A DNA stretch of 64,000 nt from Alphaproteobacteria bacterium (GTDB lineage: Bacteria; Pseudomonadota; Alphaproteobacteria; JBFXJJ01): the NCBI GenBank assembly GCA_050175015.1, contig JBFXJJ010000010.1, forward strand, positions 9,987 through 73,986, given 5' to 3'. The notes beneath the pieces are model-generated. The model saw nothing but the letters and a program-made list of their open reading frames with translations. It made no database searches and was not told the DNA's origin. Shown in pieces: positions 1 to 55,338 of this stretch; the stretch's first letter is position 1; each line of letters opens with the position of its first letter. The position numbers and the translations under genes are program-made.

Positions 1-497
1 GCGTTATTGGCTGAGTAAATTCCGTTGTTATTGCCAAGTTTGGTATGAAGTTTTTCAATATCATTTTTTGTTATTGAGGTTATTTTTTTATAATCCCAAT
101 TTTTAAAATATCGATTGTAAATATCTATATTTTCTTGCCAAGTTCTTTGTTTGGTATGCTTTTTAGAATATTTTTCAATATATTCATCAAAAAGCTCTTG
201 TAATATAAGCTCTTCCTTAAGTCTGTTCTTTTCAATATTAGGATTTTTACCTTCACTAAGCTGAGAAATAATTTCTAAAGCTTTAGCTCGAGCTTTGATT
301 AAAGTTATTTCCGTATTTTTGCCAATAGTGATTTTTAAAGGTCTGCCATTATGCTTTTTATAAATGACATAGGTTTTAACCCCTTTATCGGTAACTCGGC
401 ATATTAAACAGCTAACTTTATCATCTTTAACTGAATATCTTTTGCCCTCTTTAGCTGGCTTTAGTCTTTCAATATAACTTTCTGTAAAATTTGGCAT
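1..497 (-). CDS. Tyrosine recombinase / phage (P4-type) integrase, N-terminal part; the gene runs off the left edge
   Basis: ATG at 497 on the minus strand, preceded by GAGGA. The translation MPNFTESYIERLKPAKEGKRYSVKDDKVSCLICRVTDKGVKTYVIYKKHNGRPLKITIGKNTEITLIKARAKALEIISQLSEGKNPNIEK matches the integrase arm-type DNA-binding N-domain (pattern LTDxxIxxLKP...Y.v.D..v.GL.lrV...G.KtW...Y). It is not in the ORF track because it is open at the window edge. Confidence 0.7.
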   Translation of the reverse strand, partial: MPNFTESYIERLKPAKEGKRYSVKDDKVSCLICRVTDKGVKTYVIYKKHNGRPLKITIGKNTEITLIKARAKALEIISQLSEGKNPNIEKNRLKEELILQELFDEYIEKYSKKHTKQRTWQENIDIYNRYFKNWDYKKITSITKNDIEKLHTKLGNNNGIYSANN

Positions 498-513
498 TTT
501 AAAAAATCCTCAA

Positions 514-600
514 ACTGGGGCTACTTTTTTAAATTTAATTTCAACAAAAGCGTTTTTTTAGAAGGGTTTTATAAAAATCTCGGGGCTACTCTGGGGCTAC
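514..600. repeat. Three copies of GGGGCTAC (517-524, 582-589, 593-600; the last two 11 bp apart) between the integrase start and the tRNA-like core; candidate integrase arm-type binding sites
   Basis: Exact octamer repeats read directly from the sequence (ACTGGGGCTAC, TCTCGGGGCTAC, TCTGGGGCTAC). They lie in the 240-bp int-att spacer. Confidence 0.45.
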
Positions 601-738
601 CTTTTTGATAAAAAACCATCAAAAACGACTTGTTGTTATAAAACCAAGAATCAGGCAAAAGTGTTGAATTGTCAAGGGTTATAATGGCATATAAAAAACC
701 GTCAAACCTAAAACCAGCAAATTTGTAATCAGAGGGTC

Positions 739-766
739 GGGAGTTCAAGTCTCTTAGCCGGCACCA
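739..766 (+). other. tRNA 3'-end-like fragment (T-arm GGGAG-TTCAAGT-CTCTT, acceptor 3' strand AGCCGGC, discriminator A, CCA); putative att core or direct repeat of an integrated element
   Basis: Canonical T-loop TTCAAGT and a ...GCCGGCACCA end are present. No matching 5' acceptor strand (GCCGGCT), D-arm or anticodon arm lies upstream, so this is not an intact tRNA gene. Confidence 0.5.
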
Positions 767-778
767 GAATTCTCAAGG

Positions 779-816
779 GTTTCAAAGTTTTTGCTTTGAA
801 ACTTTTTTGTTTTTTT
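779..816 (+). terminator. Rho-independent terminator immediately after the tRNA-like 3' end
   Basis: Hairpin GTTTCAAAG / loop TTTTTG / CTTTGAAAC, followed by TTTTTTGTTTTTTT. Confidence 0.6.
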
Positions 817-862
817 GATGTCATCTTAGGGATAATCTTTTAAATAAGAATGAAGTTATAAT

Positions 863-1309
863 TTACGGTAACGAGCTATAAGCTTTAATTAACATCATAA
901 TCATATTTTTAAAATTAGAAATTGTATTATAACATTCAGGACAAAAGAATGATGCTAAGTAGTAGCCCAAAAAGACAATAGGAATATTCCCAGGAAGAGT
1001 TGTATAGTAAAGGAAAATACTGACAAGCGTATAAAACCATAAAAAGTAATAGAGTATTTTTTTTATTTTTTGGTTCTTGTTATATTTTAGTGTTTGATAA
1101 TATGAGAAGATTAACACAGAGAAAAACAGTGTATTTCTGCAAAAATAAAACATATTACGGTATTCTCTTGAAGAAAAAGTGTCGTATCTTTCTAAAAAGC
1201 ATAAAAGAACTCCCAAACAAATTTGTAATAAGATGAAATAAACAAAGAAAACACGCCAAAAACCAGTGTTGATATCTATTTTTAAAATATTTTTGATGTC
1301 GTTTTTCAT
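863..1309 (-). CDS. Hypothetical small polytopic membrane protein (148 aa)
   Basis: ORF with several hydrophobic segments and no recognisable family. It sits in a very AT-rich accessory segment. Confidence 0.35.
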   Translation of the reverse strand: MKNDIKNILKIDINTGFWRVFFVYFILLQICLGVLLCFLERYDTFSSREYRNMFYFCRNTLFFSVLIFSYYQTLKYNKNQKIKKILYYFLWFYTLVSIFLYYTTLPGNIPIVFLGYYLASFFCPECYNTISNFKNMIMMLIKAYSSLP

Positions 1310-1352
1310 GAAAAACCCCGTTTTTTCAATAAGTATTGTTTTGTATTTATAT

Positions 1353-1814
1353 TTATCTTAAGTCCGAAGATAAGTTATGCTTTGCCATGTGTAACTCAAT
1401 TATTTTTGGGCGGTATAATGCTGAGCCAATATGGACTAATGGTGTTAAACTTCTAAAATATGAAATAGAAAGCATTGAAAGTATATAGTATAAAATTAAT
1501 GAGTATTTTATTGCATTCCTTGTTTTGTCTGAGTTTACCTTCTTTAATGATTTAAATACAAAAACAAAGCTATATATGGTATATATAACAACAATATATA
1601 AGGGAATGTAGATAAAGATGAAATAAAGTGTAAAATAAAGATAAAGGTTATTTTTAACAATATTATAAAAGCTATCAATGTTGTTCATTAAAATAAAATC
1701 TATTGTCTGTTTGAATATCCCAACAGCAGTTTGCCCTAAAATAAACACATAAAAAATTTGGGTAAAAATATTCTTATTTATATGTCTGCATATATTACTG
1801 AAAAGTGTATTCAT
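1353..1814 (-). CDS. Hypothetical small polytopic membrane protein (153 aa)
   Basis: Hydrophobic, Tyr/Ile-rich ORF lying 44 nt upstream of and co-oriented with 863..1309. It could be a fragment of a larger membrane-protein gene. Confidence 0.35.
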   Translation of the reverse strand: MNTLFSNICRHINKNIFTQIFYVFILGQTAVGIFKQTIDFILMNNIDSFYNIVKNNLYLYFTLYFIFIYIPLYIVVIYTIYSFVFVFKSLKKVNSDKTRNAIKYSLILYYILSMLSISYFRSLTPLVHIGSALYRPKIIELHMAKHNLSSDLR

Positions 1815-1909
1815 TCGATATCATTCCAATGATTAATTTTTTTATTTTCTAAATTAATAAATAGCACAAAATAGCACAGAGTTTAATTTTTAAAACAGTA
1901 TTGTTAGAG

Positions 1910-2527
1910 TTATTGAATGTTGTTTATTATAGCATCACATAGAGCACTATCTTTTCCCTTTTTTATTTTTTTATAGCAATTGTCGAAAATACATAAATTA
2001 TAGAGCCTGTTATAATTATCAATTAAATAAGTATACGAAACTTTTTGTTCGTTAATAATATAATTCTGGTTATTAAACTGAAAAAAATTAAATTCGGAAT
2101 TTAAAGGTAAAGACAATTCCTTCTTTTCAATAGAATATGATGGAAAATAGGCGTTCTTTATTTTTCTTCCGTTGAATTTACTGGCGATACCATTTAAATC
2201 TTTTTCGCTGTTTATAGTCAAACTTGATTGTTTTAGATAGTTTTTAACCTCGTCGATATTGTCAAAATAAACATACCCTAAACGTTCATTCTTGTTGTTT
2301 AACTTTATAATATGAAGCAGTTCTTCTTTGCCATCGTTATTAAAATCAATAAAAATAATTTTATCATCAGTATTAGCAATCTTTGCCATTTGAAACTGGG
2401 TAATTTCGTTGTCCCATTGATACGAATTAAAAGTAGAGGCATTTTGATTGTTATGTTTTGCTGTTGTGTAACCAATAAAACCACAAATTGCCACAAGTAA
2501 AAAAAGAAAAATTACTCTGCTGTTCAT
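1910..2527 (-). CDS. Secreted protein with one copy of the ~150-aa DxNxDG repeat unit (205 aa)
   Basis: N-terminal signal peptide MNSRVIFLFLLVAICGFIGYTTA. It contains WDNEITQFQMAKI...IDFNNDGKEELLHI...KNYLKQSSLTINSEKD...KFNGRKI, the same unit that is repeated in the upstream 919-aa protein. The ATGA start/stop overlap with that gene at 2524-2527 suggests translational coupling. Confidence 0.55.
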   Translation of the reverse strand: MNSRVIFLFLLVAICGFIGYTTAKHNNQNASTFNSYQWDNEITQFQMAKIANTDDKIIFIDFNNDGKEELLHIIKLNNKNERLGYVYFDNIDEVKNYLKQSSLTINSEKDLNGIASKFNGRKIKNAYFPSYSIEKKELSLPLNSEFNFFQFNNQNYIINEQKVSYTYLIDNYNRLYNLCIFDNCYKKIKKGKDSALCDAIINNIQ

Positions 2528-5283
2528 TTGTTATTTACTTTTGTTTGAGATTCTTCAGTTTTTTCCAACTTATCTAAATCTGTACCGCAGAGTTCCTTTA
2601 CTTTTTGTTTGAGGTAAGTTTCAAGCTGTTTTTTAGTATTTTCTGATAAATTAGAATTTTTTACTCTAGCTTTTATTTCATCAGCAAAGCTTTCGTCATA
2701 TAAATAACTATCTTCATGAACGTGGTTTTTAGATATAATCTTAGCCGTGTATAACCTTATGATATTAAGCGGTAAATTTTCATTTTTATATAAGTAAGGA
2801 TAAAACGAGCAAATTTCATGGGATTTATCATCTTTTATTAAATATATATCATCGTAATAAGTATCAAAAAAATAGTTGGTTTTATTATATTTAAAGAATG
2901 AAAAATCATTCCAGTTAAATGGTTGTTTGTTATTCAAGAACTGTTCTGAGATACTGTTTTTTAAATTAGATTTTTTAACGAATCTAATAAAATTATCTTT
3001 ATTTTTTACAATACTGTTTGGTTCCTTTAGAAAAGCATTACTTAGACTTATATCATCTAAATAGATGTCATAACCAATGTTTCCATAAGGTTCATCAATG
3101 GCATCATAAACCCAAGCAATTTCTTGTTCTAGTTCTTCGTGCCTGTTTTTATTTTTTATTGGAAACCTTTCATGGATAAAGATATCACTATTAAATTTCT
3201 GGGCTATTTTCACAAAATCATCTTTGTTTTTAAGAACTAAGTTTGGTTGTTTTAAATATTTTTTAACTTCAGAAATGTTTTTAGAAAAGATTGCAGTATC
3301 AATATTATTATTAATTCCATCTAGAGAATATATTCCTGTAGTATAGATTAACTCATTGTTGTTGTCGTTATTAAAATCAAGCTCAATAATTTTAGATAAA
3401 TTCGCAGCCTCAATTAACATTTGGGCAATGTTATTGTCCCATTCATACGGTTCAATTTTGAAGTTTTGAGAGATATAATTATCAAAATCATTAATAATAT
3501 TTGTTTCGACTGAAAAACCATAATAACTTGCTACATTTTTACAGAAAATATTGTCTTCTCCTTGTTGGGGAATATTGGTTGACCCAACAAAACTGCAAAT
3601 TTCTTTGGCTGAGTTTTTTTCGATTAGAAATACCTGTGTTTGCCAACGATTTTTATTAAGAAAATAAATTTTGCTATCAGAATAAAAAAAGTTAGGTTCA
3701 TCTATTGGCAAAAACCAACGTTCTTTCTTTTCATCAAAATAGGGGGTTCCTGAGGGAGTTATTTCTTTGCCGTTAAATTTTTCTGCAATGTTAAAAAAAT
3801 CATTTTGATTATTTATAACAAAGCTTTTTTGTTTTAATTGTTTGATGATATCGTCAATATTACTGTAATAAATTACAGCTTTTCTCGTTGATATAGAATT
3901 TTCTTTGGCATCTAGGTTATAATTTTTAGAAATATGTATTAACTCTTTTTGCCCATCATTGTTGAAATCAATTAAAATAACCCCATCTAAAGAATCATCG
4001 ATAGGAGGTGTTTGCATTTGAGTTATTTTATGATCCCAATTATATTTCTTTATTCTATGATATTGACCAACATCATTTAAATCAAAATCGCTTGGTATTT
4101 TATTTACGATTTTTTTGGCTTTGACAAGACCATTGTTTTTATTTTTAGCATTCCAGTTGTAGTTTGGGTAAGTTTTAACATTGCTTGGATAGTTTTTTAT
4201 CTTTTCGTTTTTTACCAACAATCCATATGAATTAGCTGCAACATGGCAAACAAGGTTTTCATATCCTGACGTTAGTTCAAAATCAGGCAAAGAAAAACGG
4301 CACAACCTTTTTGCTTGGTTGTTTTCAATTAAGAAAACATTTGTTTTTTCGCTCAATATGTAAGTTTTATTATGGAACTCAAAAAATACAAGATCAATTA
4401 ACGGTAAGGCCCAATCTTGATTTTTCTCTGAGAAAAAAGGAGCATAAGCAAAGTTTATTTCTTTGCCATTAAATTTTTTAACAATAGCATCAAAGTTAGA
4501 TTTATTTTTTAAGGTTAGATTTGGTTGTTTTAAGTATGCTTTGATTGCGCTAATATTTTGAGTGAAAAAGGCGGTATAACCTTTGTAAGTATCATATACT
4601 TCCTGTCCATAATCTTTTAAGTAATAAAATCCTGTAGTATAAATTAGTTCTTTTTTGCCATCATTATTAAAGTCAACTTCAATTATTTTAGATGGTTCTA
4701 GTTTAGCCAGTTGTATTTGCGCAATGTTATTGTCCCAAGACATTTCTTCTATTAGTTTTGGTTTTATGAAATTTTCTTTGTCAGTAAGAAAGCTGTGTTT
4801 CTCGGCAAATGCATAACAAACAGGTTCATTAAAGCCATAGTTAAGAAATAAAGGAGAGTTTGAATTATAATACCATTCATCATAAGTTTTTTTAGGATAA
4901 TTTTTTGCTAGTAACCAAGATGAACCATCTACAATTATTGATTTTGCAAAATCGCCTCTATTACAACTCATAGGAGTGCCATAGTTTTGGTAAAAAGCAT
5001 TTTTATGTAGTTTAGCGCACATAATTCTACATTGTTCTTCCTCTTTTGACTTTGGAGAAAACCCTAAGTAACAATTATGGTTGCATCTAACTTCGCCTTC
5101 TTTGTAACTGAAACCTGTTTCTAATGTAAAATCATTTTTTATTTTATTCAGGCTAGGAATCTTGCTCCAATCTGGATGATACTTCAATTTAGAGAAAACA
5201 GAGTTGCCTTCATCTGCTATGCTAATCGAAGCTGCCAGGGTTAAAAATGTTATGATAAATGCAATAAATTTAAGTGATTTCAT
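2524..5283 (-). CDS. Large secreted protein (919 aa): signal peptide, Cys-rich N-domain, then four tandem ~150-aa repeat units each carrying a DFNNDGKKELI (DxNxDG, Ca-binding-loop-like) motif
   Basis: Signal peptide MKSLKFIAFIITFLTLAASISIA. The repeat units begin WDNNIAQIQLAKLEPSKIIEVDFNNDGKKELIYTTG; WDHKITQMQTPPIDDSLDGVILIDFNNDGQKELIHIS; WDNNIAQMLIEAANLSKIIELDFNNDNNNELIYTTG; a fourth is degenerate. Each unit is followed by KxYLKQPNLxLKNK...KFNGKEI. Confidence 0.6.
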   Translation of the reverse strand: MKSLKFIAFIITFLTLAASISIADEGNSVFSKLKYHPDWSKIPSLNKIKNDFTLETGFSYKEGEVRCNHNCYLGFSPKSKEEEQCRIMCAKLHKNAFYQNYGTPMSCNRGDFAKSIIVDGSSWLLAKNYPKKTYDEWYYNSNSPLFLNYGFNEPVCYAFAEKHSFLTDKENFIKPKLIEEMSWDNNIAQIQLAKLEPSKIIEVDFNNDGKKELIYTTGFYYLKDYGQEVYDTYKGYTAFFTQNISAIKAYLKQPNLTLKNKSNFDAIVKKFNGKEINFAYAPFFSEKNQDWALPLIDLVFFEFHNKTYILSEKTNVFLIENNQAKRLCRFSLPDFELTSGYENLVCHVAANSYGLLVKNEKIKNYPSNVKTYPNYNWNAKNKNNGLVKAKKIVNKIPSDFDLNDVGQYHRIKKYNWDHKITQMQTPPIDDSLDGVILIDFNNDGQKELIHISKNYNLDAKENSISTRKAVIYYSNIDDIIKQLKQKSFVINNQNDFFNIAEKFNGKEITPSGTPYFDEKKERWFLPIDEPNFFYSDSKIYFLNKNRWQTQVFLIEKNSAKEICSFVGSTNIPQQGEDNIFCKNVASYYGFSVETNIINDFDNYISQNFKIEPYEWDNNIAQMLIEAANLSKIIELDFNNDNNNELIYTTGIYSLDGINNNIDTAIFSKNISEVKKYLKQPNLVLKNKDDFVKIAQKFNSDIFIHERFPIKNKNRHEELEQEIAWVYDAIDEPYGNIGYDIYLDDISLSNAFLKEPNSIVKNKDNFIRFVKKSNLKNSISEQFLNNKQPFNWNDFSFFKYNKTNYFFDTYYDDIYLIKDDKSHEICSFYPYLYKNENLPLNIIRLYTAKIISKNHVHEDSYLYDESFADEIKARVKNSNLSENTKKQLETYLKQKVKELCGTDLDKLEKTEESQTKVNNK

Positions 5284-5286
5284 GTT

Positions 5287-6399
5287 TTATCTTGATCTAA
5301 GTTTTTTTATATCAAAAAAGTTTTTTTTGGGTGCTATTTCTAAAATTCTATCATATCCGTTTTCCCTTTCTGGTATATGTTTAGGATTCTCTTTATCAAA
5401 ATCATTAAATGTCTTAGGAAAGTTATTTGAAATATAATTAATAGTTGATTTTCTTAAGCCTACATTTTTGTCGGTTTGTATAAATGTTGATAGATCTTCT
5501 ATGTATATACAGTCTTCAATTAAAAAATTTTTTAAAAAAACTGAGACATCTACATCTTTTGAAAAATTAAATTTATCTTTTTGGGGCTGATTTTGTTTAA
5601 GAAACTTAACCATATTTTCTTCGTAGTAATCTTTTCTTAAGTCACTTAACCATATATTTTTTTTATTAACTTCTTTTTTTCCCTCATTATTTAGATTTGC
5701 TTTATCGGCACCACTATATTCATACCATTCCTTGAAAGCACTTTTTGTTGCTTGCATTGTTCCGTTGCTAATTTCTCTTTCAAAAGCCTTGAAAATATCA
5801 CTTGATGAACTTTCTTTGCGAGCATCAAAATAGACACTAAGATTACTTTCTTTTTTTAGTTCCCAAGTGGCAAGAGCAGAAAATGCTGTAGCATCAGCTT
5901 CCATTACTCGGTCTTTTATAATCCAAGCTCTTATACTGTCTTTTGTTAATTCAATTTCTATTCCTTTTCTATTTTGCCAAAAATGGCGTATTTCATGTGC
6001 AAAAGTTGCAGGCATATTGACCCCATAACTATCTATGTCACTTTTGAATTTGCTATAAGCATCTCCGTATCTTTGTCCGTAAGTTTCTGGGGTGTCGTCT
6101 TTTCCATATTTTTCAATAATGCGAGGAATTATAATTTTTTTATTTACTGAATCAAAAACTCCAAAATTTTTTGTTTCTTTTTTATTGCTATCAGGATTGT
6201 TTTTGTAAACCTCATCACTGAAAACAACCTTTATTTTATCTACCCCTATTTCTTTGATTAGACGTCGGATAGATTTACTTAAGAGAGTATTATAAAACTG
6301 AGAGTGATAAATAATCGCATATTGATCTAGTTTTTGGCACCAAAGATCATTATACACTTCAGGAGAATCGGTCTCTATATCAGGTGTTCTGATATACAT
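5287..6399 (-). CDS. Zincin-like protein with HExxH (AHEIRHF) and a downstream Glu (MEADATAF); putative metallopeptidase-fold protein with no signal peptide (370 aa)
   Basis: The HEIRH motif and a Glu about 30 residues downstream resemble the gluzincin arrangement. The stop lies 3 nt before the start of the 919-aa gene, which indicates an operon. The family could not be assigned from sequence alone. Confidence 0.45.
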   Translation of the reverse strand: MYIRTPDIETDSPEVYNDLWCQKLDQYAIIYHSQFYNTLLSKSIRRLIKEIGVDKIKVVFSDEVYKNNPDSNKKETKNFGVFDSVNKKIIIPRIIEKYGKDDTPETYGQRYGDAYSKFKSDIDSYGVNMPATFAHEIRHFWQNRKGIEIELTKDSIRAWIIKDRVMEADATAFSALATWELKKESNLSVYFDARKESSSSDIFKAFEREISNGTMQATKSAFKEWYEYSGADKANLNNEGKKEVNKKNIWLSDLRKDYYEENMVKFLKQNQPQKDKFNFSKDVDVSVFLKNFLIEDCIYIEDLSTFIQTDKNVGLRKSTINYISNNFPKTFNDFDKENPKHIPERENGYDRILEIAPKKNFFDIKKLRSR

Positions 6400-6770
6400 T
6401 GGGCCTCCTTCTGTGGTAAGAGCATCTATATTTCTTGTGCTTCTATAGCGTCGACATCGTTCTCTATTTGCAAGTCATGCTTGCTAGCAAGGCTGTTCTT
6501 CCTTCCTGAAAGAAATTCTTTAATGCCACCTTTGGCTTTAAATTGTTCAACTTTAGATGATTTAACCATAATAAAAAATCCTGTTGTTTATTTTTAAAAA
6601 AATAAATCTGATTGGAATAATAACGTTTCAATTTTATAGGCTGTTTTTTTGAACATATTTTAATTATAAGGATGTTTTGTTGCAAGTTATAGTTTTGTAA
6701 CAAATATTATTACAGCTAATTTGTTTAAAGAAACTGCCAGTTACAATGATTACAATAAAATTAAGTGATT

Positions 6771-6944
6771 TCATTGGCCGTTTCTGCTTGCTTGAGGTTT
6801 TTTCATTCTTTCTAACTTATCCCAATCTGTGCCGCAGAGTTTCTTGACTTTTTGTTTGAGATAGGTTTCAAGCTGTTTTTTAGTATTTTCTAATAAATTA
6901 GAATTTTTTACTCTAGCTTTTATTTCATATACAAAGCATATCAT
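6771..6944 (-). pseudogene. Truncated duplicate of the 3' end of the 919-aa repeat-protein gene (58-aa remnant ORF)
   Basis: 6814-6940 is about 92% identical to 2566-2690, the C-terminal coding end of 2524..5283. The remnant translates as ...IKARVKNSNLLENTKKQLETYLKQKVKKLCGTDWDKLE, against the full gene's ...IKARVKNSNLSENTKKQLETYLKQKVKELCGTDLDKLE. Confidence 0.6.
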
Positions 6945-7260
6945 TTGGTTTCAATCATAAAAAAGAAACGCAAATATATTTGCATTTAAACGTTTTTTGT
7001 TCTAATAACGCTTAAGTGTTGTAATATTTGTGTTTAGAATAATTTTGCCGCAAATTTAAAGGCTGTATAAGCTAAGGTTATGTTTGGCTAAGTATTTAAA
7101 AAAATGTTTTCTTCTTTATTATGAAGAAAAACGGAATAGGAAAAAATAATAAATTATAGCAAATATTCAAATTTATTATTGACCATAATTAAAAATAGCA
7201 ATAATCAAAAAAACAATAAACTGCTTTTTTAGTAGGTTTTTTATGGAGAAATAAAAGAAT

Positions 7261-10200
7261 ATGTCCAATGATTATGTTGAAGAGTTATTGTTTAAGCAAT
7301 TAAATAATAAGGAGTTACTCTCGAAGTATGGCTTGTATAATCAAAAAGATGAACACTCTTCCTGCGGTGTTGGGTTTATCTCATCGATTGATGGCAAAGC
7401 CAGCCGAAAAGTTGTAAAAGTTGGCATAGAATCCTTAAAAGCGCTTTTTTATAGAGGCGCCGTTGATGCTGATGGCAAAACGGGAGATGGGGCTGGTATT
7501 CATATTGAGCTGCCACAAGAATTTTTTAAAGAGCATATCAGAAACACGGGGCATGCGGCTAAAAAAGATTTAGTTGCGGTTGGTATGATTTTTCTTCCAA
7601 GAAAAGATTTGCACGCTAGAGAGCGCTGCCGTGCGATTGTCGAAAGCGAGATTATTGATTTTGGCTATGAGGTTTATGGCTGGAGGCAGGTTCCCGTTGA
7701 TACTTCTGTGATTGGCGAAAAGGCCAATGCCACAAGACCAGAAATCGAGCAAATTATGATTGCTAACTCCAAAAATAAAACAGCAGAAGATTTTGATCTT
7801 GATTTATACATAATAAGAAGAAAAATAGAAAATGCGGTGATTGCCGAGCATATAAAAGATTTTTATATATGCTCTTTTTCCTGCCGTACAATTATCTATA
7901 AGGGGCTGTTTTTAGCTGGGCAGTTAGCGCAGTTTTTTCCTGATTTGCAGGACGAAAGATTTATATCAAGATACGCTCTTTATCACCAGCGTTATTCCAC
8001 TAATACTTTTCCAACTTGGTCATTAGCGCAGCCTTTTAGAATGATTGCTCATAATGGCGAGATAAACACGTTGTCGGGCAATCTTAACTGGTTAAAAGCG
8101 CTTGAGCCTCGGTTAGAAAGCAAAAGAATAGGGGAATATATTAAAGACGTAAAACCGATTGTCTTGCCTGATAGTTCTGATTCTGCGGCACTTGACAGCG
8201 TGTTTGAGCTAATGTGTTATTCGGGCAGGGACATACCTCTTGTAAAGTCCATTCTGATTCCAGAAGCAATCGAAAATAAGAAAGATGCCAAAGAGGAATT
8301 GAAGGCTTTTGTTTCTTACTGCAACAGCATAATAACCCCTTGGGACGGTCCTGCGGCTTTAGTTGCGACCGATGGCAAATGGATTTTAGCTGGTATGGAT
8401 AGAAATGGTTTGCGCCCGCTTCGTTATACGGTAATGGAAGACGGTTTGCTAATTGTTGGTTCCGAAAGCGGTATGATACGAGTTAAAGAAACGGACATAA
8501 TAGAAAAGGGCAAAATTCTTCCAGGGGAAATGCTGGCTCTGAATCTTGATGAAGGAAAATTATATAAAGATGCCGAAATAAAAGCAAAGCTTGCTGCTAA
8601 GCACCCTTACTCTGACTGGGTTAAACGGATAACAAAGTTAGAAGATATTATAAGAGAAAAAACATTAGATAAGCCTTCGGTTAAAGAAGAAAGCTTAACT
8701 AAACTGCAAAACTGTTTTGGTATAACGAAAGAAGATATAAAAACGGTTTTAACTCCTATGATTTGTGATGGCAAAGAAGCTGTTGGTTCTATGGGAGATG
8801 ATGTTCCTTTGGCCGTTCTAGCCGAAGGTTACCGTAGTTTACACCATTATTTTAGGCAGATTTTTAGTCAGGTTACTAATCCTCCTATAGATAGTTTGAG
8901 AGAAGTATCCGTTATGTCGCTGGCGACAAGAATTGGCAATATGGGTAATATCTTAGATGAAACGGAAAGGCAGTGTGATATTTTAGAAATGGCTTCGCCT
9001 GTTTTGCTTAACCGTGAATTCGATACAATGGTAGACTTTCTAAAGGATAAAATTTATCAAATCGATTGTACTTTTGATGTTGAGGGTGGAAAAGATTCTT
9101 TGTTTCATCGAGTTGAGGAGATAAAAAAAGAAGCGGTTTCTGCGGTTTTATCTGGTAAATCTAATATCGTTTTATCTGACAGAAACATTTCTGAAAAAAG
9201 AGCTCCAATGCCTATGATATTGGCTACAGGGGCAGTCCATACTGAGTTAATAAAACAAAAATTGAGAGCCGAAAGCACAATTCACGTTGCCTCAGGAGAA
9301 TGTATCGATACGCATTATTTTGCCGTCTTAATCGGAGTTGGGGCAACAACGGTAAATCCTTATTTAACTCAAGATGCCATTGTTATAAGTCATAAAAAAG
9401 ATAATCTTTACGGTGAGTTATCATTAGAGGAATGTCTGCAAAATTATAAAAAAGCTATAAATGCAGGGCTGTTAAAAATAATGTCAAAAGTAGGCATTTG
9501 CATAATAAGCTCTTACCGAGGTGGTGGCTACTTCGAGGCCTTAGGATTATCAAGAACAATGGTTGCCAGATGCTTTTTAGGTATGTCATCAAGAATATCT
9601 GGCATCGGAACGGAAGGTCTCCGTCAAATGATTGTAAAACAGCATAAGAAAGCCTTCGTAGAAGGGGCAGATCTTGATGCTGGCGGTTTTTATTTTGATA
9701 GAAAAAATTCCAAAACACCGCACGGCTTTAGTATGCTTATTGCTAAAAAGCTCCAAGAAGCAGTTCGGACAGATTCTTATACGGCATATAAGGATTATGT
9801 AGAAGAAATAGAAAAGCTTCCTCCGATTGATTTGCGTAATTTATTAGGATTTAAGTATGCGAAAGAGCCTATGCCAAGAGATGAAGTTCAGTCTATAACC
9901 GAGATTAGAAAAAGCTTCTTAACTCCAGGAATGTCTTATGGTGCGCTAAGCCCCGAAGCTCACGAAACACTTAATATTGCAATGAATAGAATTGGGGCTA
10001 AATCTGTTTCAGGGGAAGGCGGAGAAGATTCTAATCGTTATAAGCCTTATTCAAATGGAGACAACGCTAATTCCGCAGTAAAACAGGTCGCATCTGGTCG
10101 TTTTGGCGTAACAGCGGAGTATCTTAATAACTGCGTTGAAATCGAAATAAAAATGGCACAAGGAGCAAAACCAGGTGAAGGCGGACAGTTGTTGGGCATT

Positions 10201-11803: not shown

Positions 11804-11826
11804 AAATAAATAAGCCTTATTTATTT
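11804..11826. terminator. Perfect AT-rich inverted repeat (AAATAAATAAG CC TTATTTATTT) between the convergent gltB and 11821..12657 genes; likely a bidirectional terminator
   Basis: 11-bp perfect stem seen directly. It overlaps the stop codon of the minus-strand gene. Confidence 0.4.
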
Positions 11827-12657
11827 TCCATTATTTTTAAAAACACAAAATGGCTCTGGATATTTTATACTTCCATAGTTGCTATTTATAACACAGCCCC
11901 AATTCCCACCATCAAAAGCATTAATTTCATCACTAATTGATATATTTGAATGATCACCGATAATTCGAAACAAACTATCTTTAAAATAAAAATAGAAATT
12001 CTTCTCAAAACTTCGTGAAAGACTTCTAATACATACTGTTTTTTCTTTATTTGTTGGATATAATCTACCAAAGACAGCCATTATAATTTTAAACGCAACT
12101 TTTTCTTTAGAATCGTACGGTTTTTTTAAAATAAAATCAGCAATATAAAATTTTTTTATTTTTTGAAATTCTGAAATGTAAGCATTCTTTAAATATGGTT
12201 TTTTATTGAAATCTGTGTCAGGATACATTTGTTCTAAAGAAGGCATTAATTGCTCTGCTTTAGCTCTTGTTATCTCTTGCCACTCTGGTTGAGAAAAATC
12301 TTTATATTCATCTGGAATATAAAGTTTATTAATAGAAATTTGATTATAAATCGTAGGTATAAAGTTATGATTTTCAGGTAACTCTAGTATTTCTTTAAAT
12401 TTTTCGCACAATTCAGGTTTATGATTAGTTACCAATTCAAAATGAACGGGTTCTCCTTTTTGAACGGGTGGTATAGGTTTAGGATTATCTACTATGGTAT
12501 CATTAAAATTGTTAGCTAAAACAGATTGTTCTTTTTTCATAATAGCCTCGTTATCTTCAGCTATTTTTTTGTTAACTAAAGCCTCTTCTGCTCCTGCATT
12601 TATTATGAAAGAAAACAAAAGGAAGCAACTAAAGTTAAATAAAAAGATTTTTTTCAT
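11821..12657 (-). CDS. Hypothetical secreted protein (278 aa)
   Basis: Signal peptide MKKIFLFNFSCFLLFSFIINAGAEE. No recognisable family. Confidence 0.5.
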   Translation of the reverse strand: MKKIFLFNFSCFLLFSFIINAGAEEALVNKKIAEDNEAIMKKEQSVLANNFNDTIVDNPKPIPPVQKGEPVHFELVTNHKPELCEKFKEILELPENHNFIPTIYNQISINKLYIPDEYKDFSQPEWQEITRAKAEQLMPSLEQMYPDTDFNKKPYLKNAYISEFQKIKKFYIADFILKKPYDSKEKVAFKIIMAVFGRLYPTNKEKTVCIRSLSRSFEKNFYFYFKDSLFRIIGDHSNISISDEINAFDGGNWGCVINSNYGSIKYPEPFCVFKNNGK

Positions 12658-54411: not shown

Positions 54412-55338
54412 ATGGCTCAAATTTCAGCCTCTATGGTAAAAGAACTGCGTGAGATGACTAACGCAGGTATGATGGATTGCAAAAAAGCTTTGGCAGAAGT
54501 TGATGGAGATATGGACGCTGCTGTTGATTGGCTTAGAAAAAAAGGTTTAGCTGCAGCTGCTAAAAAATCAGGACGTGTTGCATCAGAAGGTTTAATTGGT
54601 GTTAATGTTGATAATAATTCTGGGGTTTTAGTTGAAGTTAACTCTGAAACAGATTTCGTATCAAGAAACACCGAATTTCAGAGCTTTGTTGCTAATGTAT
54701 CTAAAGTTGCAGTCGAAGCTGAAGGTGATGTTGAAAAACTTAAAACAACAGCATATCCAGAATCTCAAAAAGATGTTGCTTCTCAATTAACCGATTTGAT
54801 TGCTAAGATTGGTGAAAATATGAGCTTACGTCGTACATCTGTTCTTAAAACAGATAATGGTGTGGTTGCATCTTATGTTCATAATCAGGTTTCTCCTAAT
54901 TTAGGAAAAATAGGGGTTTTAGTTGCTTTAGAATCAGAAGCAGCTAAAGATAAACTTTTAGAATTAGGCAAACAGATTGCTATGCACGTTGCTGCATCTA
55001 ATCCTCAATATCTTGAGATTAAAGATGTTGATAGCGAAGCTTTAGATAGAGAACGTTCAGTTCTTTCTGAGCAGGCAAGAGCATCTGGTAAGCCAGAAAA
55101 TATTATTGAAAAGATGGTTGAAGGCAGATTACGCAAGTTCTATGAAGAAGTTGTGCTTTTAGAACAACCATTTGTGCTTGATCCTGATAACAAAGTGGCT
55201 AAAGCCGTTGAGCAGGTAGCTAAGGAAGTTGGAAAGCCAATTAAAGTTAAAGGCTTTACAAGATATGCACTTGGTGAGGGCATAGAAAAGAAAGAAAATG
55301 ATTTTGCGGCAGAGGTTGCAGCTGCTGCTGGTAAATAA
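54412..55338 (+). CDS. tsf: Elongation factor Ts
   Basis: [25 protein letters not shown]-terminus. 308 aa. Confidence 0.95.

Follow-up and report, generated by a model that had tools for sequence, protein, structure and literature searches.

A tightly packed operon for a putative DUF6782 metallopeptidase and two predicted exported proteins of a new module family in an alphaproteobacterial genome

The 64-kb stretch of contig JBFXJJ010000010.1 that was analysed here in its full length (hereafter, the window) carries three co-directional genes, termed A, B and C, that encode a putative zinc metallopeptidase of the DUF6782 family (A) and two predicted exported proteins (B and C) with a common module, which is present in three copies in B and in a single copy in C. 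As judged by sequence comparisons, B and C define a new protein family. A second, diverged zincin–partner pair is encoded in the same genome, and relatives of A or of the module were found nowhere else. The locus probably belongs to a known kind, that of an enzyme encoded with its cognate exported partner, with the unusual trait of a fused three-module partner. We tentatively favour the possibility that A, B and C represent a leaderless zinc peptidase and its cognate periplasmic binding partners, of either the effector–immunity or the protease–inhibitor type.

Organization of the operon

The three genes are tightly coupled, as had been noted in the original prediction. The TAA stop codon of A is separated by three nucleotides (aac) from the ATG codon of B, and genes B and C overlap by ATGA. 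The sequence AAGGAGG is located 5 nt 5' of the start codon of A, and there is no Shine-Dalgarno-like sequence in front of either B or C. Since B and C lack Shine-Dalgarno sequences of their own and their start codons abut or overlap the upstream stop codons, each of them is most likely translationally coupled to the preceding gene, and such coupling would ensure coordinated, proportionate expression of all three proteins. At a GC content of 28–30%, open reading frames (ORFs) as long as 919 and 370 codons are not explicable by chance. A scan of this AT-rich DNA for promoters and terminators was uninformative, with 38 sites detected and 39 expected, and an RNA family scan of window positions 1–7400 produced no matches.

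Protein A, a putative zincin of the DUF6782 family

In Pfam, protein A matches the putative metallopeptidase family PF20573 (DUF6782) with a score of 88.1 bits (E = 7e-25), well above the cutoff of 27 bits, and the NCBI name for A is 'DUF6782 family putative metallopeptidase'. Its paralogue A', which is described below, scores 85.3 bits. In both proteins, the match is confined to the catalytic core (profile positions ∼90–214 of 241) and DUF6782 is the sole domain. Thus, the initial impression that, motifs aside, none of the three proteins resembled a well-known family has to be qualified for A, which has a named family, and is retained for B and C.

The motif-based part of the description of A was borne out by closer analysis. 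The HEIRH motif occupies residues 135–139 (encoded at 5983–5997) and is followed, 27 residues downstream, by Glu167 in the segment MEADA (encoded at 5899–5901), which is conserved in A' and is a candidate for the third zinc ligand. Protein A has no hydrophobic N-terminus and no transmembrane or signal segment, and A' likewise lacks a signal peptide. Both proteins are basic, with isoelectric points of 8.4 (A) and 9.2 (A'). A terminates in a basic tail (...KKLRSR), and the pattern K-[LI]-[RK]-S-R is kept in both proteins.

A literature search found no mention of DUF6782 or PF20573, a family that has no characterised member. PHROG, PADLOC and NCBIfam searches with A returned nothing beyond DUF6782, and no structure related by sequence was found in the PDB with either A or the A/A' profile as the query. 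A word-index search of 5.8 billion proteins returned only A and A' themselves, no relatives of A were found in 185,579 species genomes (GTDB representatives) or in JGI metagenomes, and tblastn searches against plasmids and phages came up empty. The sole match in a search of metagenomic DNA for the degenerate motif AHEI[RS]HFWQ was to an alpha/beta-hydrolase and was dismissed as a chance hit. A and A' appear from these searches to be an isolated subgroup of DUF6782.

A zincin motif nearly equal to that of A (TLAHEIRHFWQDRQG...ENDAQSYA) was seen in a 503-aa phage polyvalent protein from IMG/VR (UViG_3300033121_001557; L084, positions 3663–5174), in which a mini-zincin at the C-terminus is combined with an NT5C-like region, a Tad3 Thoeris-inhibitor domain (E = 3e-30) and DUF5661. 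This mini-zincin scores 23 bits against DUF6782, which is below the threshold. The phage protein was rejected as a homologue of A over its whole length.

The module of proteins B and C

Proteins B and C have predicted signal peptides of the n-h-c type, with the hydrophobic segment of C spanning residues 1–24. C aligns with residues 164–351, 414–581 and 612–708 of B at 34–40% identity (E = 4e-20, 5e-24 and 3e-11, respectively), so that the unit that forms C occurs three times in B. The early observations of two signal peptides and a common module are thus substantiated, as is that of a Cys-rich N-terminal region in B: there are six cysteines within residues 67–156, four of them at positions that are invariant in the family. 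The proteins encoded next to the two enzymes are near-neutral or acidic (isoelectric points of 6.5 and 5.2).

The module is ∼190 aa long, and a five-way alignment contains 19 invariant positions. Each module has a single DFNND[GN] motif (at residues 204, 439 and 636 of B and 61 of C), with spacings of 197–235 residues. The corresponding DxNxDGxxD/E-type loop motif is invariant in all eight modules of the family and is flanked by strands in an AlphaFold2 model of the module. In this model (predicted local distance difference test, pLDDT, 66; predicted TM-score, pTM, 0.63), the loop is surrounded by three strands, and the remainder is made up of two helices, about eight more strands and a C-terminal helix; a fold search gave no significant match.

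With B and C, nothing above threshold was found in Pfam, NCBIfam, PHROG or PADLOC, and PDB searches with B, the module profile and the family profile returned nothing significant. The FG-GAP_3 profile scores 22.1 bits on B (cutoff 26.9) and 13.2 bits on C, and the FG-GAP profile scores 10.6 bits on B (cutoff 22.1). An hhalign comparison of the module with FG-GAP-type repeats yielded a probability of 77% over only 23 columns, and 25 FG-GAP/VCBS repeat proteins match only positions ∼25–50 of the module profile, several times each. Judging from these local matches, the module shares a ∼20-aa strand-loop-strand element of the Ca-binding type (DFNNDGxxEL) with integrin-like propellers and is not an FG-GAP array. 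A match of C to the NisI/SpaI immunity lipoproteins (E = 0.0085) was seen in only one of five modules and was rejected as fortuitous.

Paralogues and lineage restriction

An exhaustive search of 1.84 billion representative proteins with the module profile identified four proteins with the full module and no module homologues outside the source genome; a viral scan also detected no relatives of the B family. All relatives of B are encoded in one NCBI metagenome-assembled genome (MAG), 'Alphaproteobacteria bacterium' (locus tags AB7U85_*). The full-length members share a common architecture, which comprises either a signal peptide or a lipobox, an N-domain that contains a DGSSWLL motif and four invariant cysteines, a single module and a conserved tail with ...CGTDLDKL at its end. 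Three modules are found in B alone, and C is a bare module.

Several of the follow-up checks suggested in the original prediction were carried out. Profile searches assigned A to DUF6782 and left B and C without a family and both A and B without a PDB relative, and the genome and protein sets searched contained no relatives of A or of the module beyond the source MAG. The check for paralogous loci revealed, in the same MAG, a second zincin–partner pair that consists of A' (P0033, 413 aa) and P0007 (439 aa), encoded 8 nt downstream. The identity is 38% between A and A' over their full length and 32% between B and P0007, rising to 50% within the tail of the latter two. The presence of the pair in two such diverged loci argues that the adjacency has been maintained through a long divergence. 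P0002 is unpaired and is encoded beside unrelated genes (locus L001), and P0005 and P0006 form a tandem, as indicated by their consecutive locus tags (02870/02875).

Without exception, the seven proteins of the B family carry either a type I signal or a lipobox, plus the invariant cysteines. The lipoboxes, VSGC in P0005 and P0006 and SSC in P0002, are in each case followed by Asp. With only Sec and lipoprotein signals in evidence, the periplasm would be the default location of B, C and their paralogues, and nothing among the domains or neighbouring genes in the window suggests a route for export across the outer membrane. These signals bear on the idea, put forward in the original prediction, that B and C are surface adhesins that A would cleave or mature. 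Such a relationship would account for a peptidase gene being tightly coupled to genes for multi-module exported proteins and would agree with the integrin-like Ca-loop motif. However, A has no export signal whereas B and C are Sec substrates, which would leave the enzyme and its substrate in different compartments; several paralogues (those with Asp at position +2, three in all) are lipoproteins; and no surface-display signal of the autotransporter, type I secretion system (T1SS), type IX secretion system or sortase type was found. We consider this combination of adhesins with a processing protease highly improbable, and a processing role for A is hard to reconcile with the predicted locations of the three proteins.

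The elongation factor EF-Ts of this organism (54412–55338, plus strand) has no more than 65–66% identity to its counterpart in any of the species genomes searched, and its best matches are scattered over several alphaproteobacterial orders; no close relative of this lineage has been sequenced. The poor sampling of this lineage explains, in part, the orphan status of the B family. Still, six paralogues and a set of relics with no counterpart elsewhere among 15 billion proteins exemplify the lineage-private gene content that can be found in poorly sampled Alphaproteobacteria.

Two further observations concern the paralogous loci. In L001 (positions 1–7600), a Mu-like prophage that encodes a transposase (rve, Mu-transpos_C), an AAA protein, DUF3164 and an S24 repressor is located ∼2.5 kb upstream of P0002. 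In L003, the region upstream of A'–P0007 (positions 286–950) contains a gene for a HipB-like helix-turn-helix protein and a truncated N-terminal fragment of HipA, with a C-terminal fragment of a tyrosine recombinase on the strand opposite the hip genes.

Relics of B and the apparently split N-terminus of A

The region upstream of A (window positions 6740–6937) contains partial copies of both ends of gene B (Table 1) and is, by its sequence, a relic of a B'–B'' tandem. In tblastn, the tail of B aligns with the upstream remnant at 72% amino acid identity, and the B remnants are bounded by stop codons in the six-frame translation. Gene A itself appears to have been split from the segment that encoded its N-terminal ∼50 residues by a stop codon or frameshift near 6420–6430. 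This is indicated by a 47-aa ORF upstream of A, in which residues 1–34 align with residues 1–34 of A' (E = 1e-4), and by the tblastn match of A', which overruns the ATG codon of A by 7 codons and reaches window position 6420. The split is present in two independent assemblies of the same sequencing run, a run that the literature search did not find mentioned in any paper.

The remnants of B, the frameshift in A and the occurrence of integrase, att and toxin–antitoxin fragments close to both A loci could all be taken to mean that the operon is a decaying cassette, a recombination-scrambled remnant of an array of paralogues that no longer has any function. Nevertheless, none of the three ORFs (919, 370 and 205 aa) is interrupted in DNA of 28% GC, where stop codons are frequent, conservation extends to every catalytic and module motif, and the translational coupling is intact. 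Complete loss of function therefore seems to us very unlikely.

A putative peptidase and its possible periplasmic neutralizers

Several lines of evidence lead us to favour, albeit tentatively, the view of B and C as neutralizers of A. The pair is found twice, in diverged form, with gaps of 3 nt and 8 nt between the genes, and the missing Shine-Dalgarno sequences of B and C point to coupled synthesis in proportionate amounts. A and A' have no signal peptides, whereas all partners from the B family are exported and carry conserved cysteines. Unpaired copies and recombination relics are to be expected of immunity-type arrays, the enzymes are basic and their partners acidic or near-neutral, and extreme lineage restriction is typical of fast-evolving conflict genes. 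The known arrangement in which all these traits come together is that of an effector or protease active in the periplasm and a cognate neutralizer in the same compartment. Among the alternatives listed in the original prediction, it is the toxin-like arrangement of an effector and its cognate partner that fits best, and it is this arrangement that we infer here.

If B and C are indeed neutralizers, A, which has no Sec signal, would be synthesized in the cytoplasm and, provided that it is an active peptidase, would act on envelope targets, either in a neighbouring cell, which A would reach by a presumed export route, or in its own periplasm after leakage. B and C would be translated via coupling to A and then exported through Sec. 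In the periplasm, their disulfide-stabilized modules, with Ca presumably bound in the loops, would bind and neutralize peptidases of the A type. The unpaired paralogues would then be orphan partners, and B, with its three modules, would represent several copies of the partner fused into one. A broader generalization, that DUF6782 is a novel class of toxins or proteases that target the envelope, need no recognizable secretion tag and are held in check by a new family of Ca-loop modules, concatenated in this locus, appears unlikely; if true, it would open the way, for the first time, to the function of DUF6782 and would define a new immunity or inhibitor fold.

A number of observations weigh against this assignment. 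Protein A has none of the trafficking domains VgrG, PAAR, Rhs, MIX, XVIPCD and RTX, and no secretion-system gene is found in the window or in loci L001 and L003. A may be N-terminally truncated by the frameshift, and this copy may thus be decaying, and the AlphaFold2 model of A built from the A/A' alignment is unusable (pLDDT 36, pTM 0.28). Known immunity proteins are mostly small and consist of a single domain; B is 919 aa long and includes a conserved N-domain and tail, the roles of which are unaccounted for by the model. Finally, the best conserved segments of the module, WDNNIAQ, DFNNDGKKELI and YLKQPNLxIKN, are common to all paralogues, and a shared module core fits a common ligand better than it fits toxin-specific surfaces.

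The common core would be well explained if members of the B/C family were lineage-specific Ca-dependent ligand binders of the periplasm or envelope, either lectin-like or structural, that recognize peptidoglycan, a glycan or some other ligand, and A were merely co-transcribed with them, with a role in, for example, regulation or quality control. This would also agree with the similarity of the loop to those of FG-GAP/PVL-type propeller lectins, the proximity of a large surface-glycan cluster and the fact that three of the six full-length or near-full-length members have no A neighbour, or none that could be demonstrated. It would, however, leave unexplained why a DUF6782 gene is adjacent and coupled to a B-family gene in two loci with only 38% and 32% identity between their products. 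Furthermore, the FG-GAP-like part is limited to ∼20 residues, with a single motif per module and no repeat array, and there is no significant fold match. On balance, we regard ligand binding with an incidental zincin as the main rival to the neutralizer reading and as a somewhat unlikely explanation.

The importance of the locus depends on whether the pairing is functional. A functional pairing would provide the first testable role for DUF6782 and would add a new periplasmic module of unassigned structure to the known neutralizers of proteases and effectors, whereas a non-functional one would reduce the finding to the expansion, of local interest only, of a family of exported orphan proteins.

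Genomic surroundings

Table 1. Features of the A–B–C operon and its flanking regions (window coordinates)
Feature	Position	Strand	Comment
Gene A	5287..6399	minus	370-aa ORF; putative zinc metallopeptidase without leader (DUF6782)
Gene B	2524..5283	minus	919-aa ORF; predicted exported protein
Gene C	1910..2527	minus	205-aa ORF; signal peptide and single module; predicted exported protein
B, signal peptide	5212-5283	minus	hydrophobic segment, residues 2-25
B, N-domain	4795-5211	minus	6 Cys
B, module 1	4228-4794	minus	
B, module 2	3541-4062	minus	
B, module 3	2794-3456	minus	with internal sub-duplication
B, conserved tail	2527-2721	minus	
DFNNDG loop, module 1	4657-4674	minus	
DFNNDG loop, module 2	3952-3969	minus	
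DFNNDN loop, module 3	3361-3378	minus	
DFNNDG loop, gene C	2330-2347	minus	
B-type remnant	6770-6937	minus	84% nucleotide copy of the final 168 nt of B (3' end), with the ATGA junction
B-type remnant	6740-6774	minus	83% copy of the 5' start of B (first 35 nt)
47-aa ORF (NCBI AB7U85_07435)	6426..6569	minus	apparent detached N-terminus of A
Small hydrophobic ORF, 153 aa	1353-1814	minus	95 nt downstream of C; gene status uncertain
Small hydrophobic ORF, 148 aa	863-1309	minus	43 nt past the 153-aa ORF; gene status uncertain
P4-type integrase, N-terminus	3-497	minus	Arm-DNA-bind_3, E = 1e-10; extends beyond the start of the window
tRNA 3' fragment ending in CCA	735-766	plus	between integrase and operon
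Hairpin and T-run	775-816	plus	after the tRNA fragment

The operon and the integrase gene lie on opposite sides of an att-like tRNA fragment (Table 1), which would place the operon outside the element bounded by the integrase; the mobile element itself is probably located to the left of the window. No intact tRNA was found, nor is there a second copy of the fragment in the window. The GC content of the operon is 27–30%, compared with 36–40% for core genes, and its GC content at third codon positions (GC3), 0.20–0.27, overlaps the range of 0.19–0.33 seen in core genes, so that the composition gives no clear sign of a foreign origin. The original placement of the operon in an accessory island next to an integrase is therefore right about the integrase, which is indeed nearby, but the position of the operon beyond the integrase/att boundary and its core-like GC3 lend little weight to the island.

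Downstream of C, there are two small hydrophobic ORFs in the same direction, which were called by Logan and not by NCBI and whose membership of the transcription unit is uncertain. They resemble neither each other nor the B family and have no matches in the family libraries. On its other side, the operon is flanked by gltB and, farther out, by a large surface-glycan cluster (12900–34478). The latter includes gmd, fcl, an ABC exporter, several GT1/GT4 glycosyltransferases, methyltransferases, a PGA_cap protein, a TupA-like ATP-grasp protein, an MBOAT acyltransferase and several ORFs without a family. The gene AB7U85_07450 (11821–12657, minus strand; 27% GC) encodes a 278-aa protein with a signal peptide that matches no known family and shows no similarity to the B family.

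The genomic context is also relevant to the suggestion that these proteins are effectors directed at a host or prey, with A exported by a type IV secretion system (T4SS) or T1SS by virtue of its basic C-terminal tail, the B family secreted by, for example, a type II secretion system (T2SS) and the organism associated with a eukaryotic host. The tail pattern has been kept in A and A' despite their 38% identity, and a low-GC genome with a Mu-like prophage, integrases and HipBA remnants, from a poorly sampled lineage, would be in line with such a lifestyle. On the other hand, the window, L001 and L003 contain no T4SS, T1SS or T2SS gene, no eukaryote-like domains were found, and the closest EF-Ts sequences come from free-living or gut Rhodospirillales-like genomes and not from Rickettsiales or Holosporales. 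The lipoboxes with Asp at position +2 argue for retention in the inner membrane, a rule established for Escherichia coli that may not transfer to this organism. Taken together, these data make a set of secreted effectors quite unlikely.

Comparison with known systems

The FG-GAP/VCBS propellers are tandem arrays of ∼50–60-aa blades, most often seven in number, and a Ca loop may be present in or absent from any given blade. The module of the B family has the same succession of a strand, a DxNxDGxxE/D loop and another strand as the FG-GAP/VCBS repeats (PF13517, PF01839), including those of PVL-type lectins, but it carries a single motif per ∼190–235-aa module in place of tandem ∼55-aa blades.

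In the AprA–AprI and PrtA–Inh systems, the gene for a serralysin-type zincin that lacks an N-terminal signal and leaves the cell by a T1SS is accompanied by that for a periplasmic inhibitor, which is exported through Sec and protects the producing cell. The combination of a signal-less zincin with a Sec-exported partner is the same in A–B–C. In contrast to the serralysins, A has no RTX GGxGxD repeats, its gene is not adjoined by genes for an exporter made up of an ABC transporter, a membrane fusion protein and an outer-membrane protein, and its partner is unrelated to the serralysin inhibitors in size and sequence.

Documented analogies are found among effector–immunity pairs, although no homology of A or its partners to the known families (Tpe–Tpi, X-Tfe/X-Tfi) was detected. 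The bactericidal T4SS of Xanthomonadales delivers leaderless effectors (X-Tfe) that are paired with lipoprotein immunity proteins (X-Tfi), whose genes are usually located upstream of those for the effectors (PMC6536674, PMC10933484). As in XAC2609/XAC2610, a leaderless putative effector and a predicted periplasmic partner are encoded in one operon in A–B–C, and the B family resembles the X-Tfi proteins in having orphan and degraded copies and lipoprotein members. The differences are that A has no XVIPCD, that no VirB/VirD4 genes were found in the window, L001 or L003, that the gene order is reversed and that the organism is an alphaproteobacterium.

The periplasm-acting metallopeptidase effectors of the Tpe–Tpi (VgrG2b–PA0261) pairs are countered by immunity proteins that rely on a signal peptide, a lipoprotein or transmembrane anchor and are disulfide-dependent (PMC6899460). 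A–B–C differs from these type VI secretion system (T6SS) pairs in that the PDB searches with A and the A/A' profile revealed no sequence relation, in that there are no VgrG, PAAR or T6SS genes nearby, and in the large, multi-module partner. The parallels extend to both components: as in Tpe (the C-terminal metallopeptidase of VgrG2b), a putative HExxH peptidase without a signal peptide is encoded next to its presumed cognate partner, and the members of the B family, like the Tpi proteins, would reach the periplasm by varied means and have conserved cysteines.

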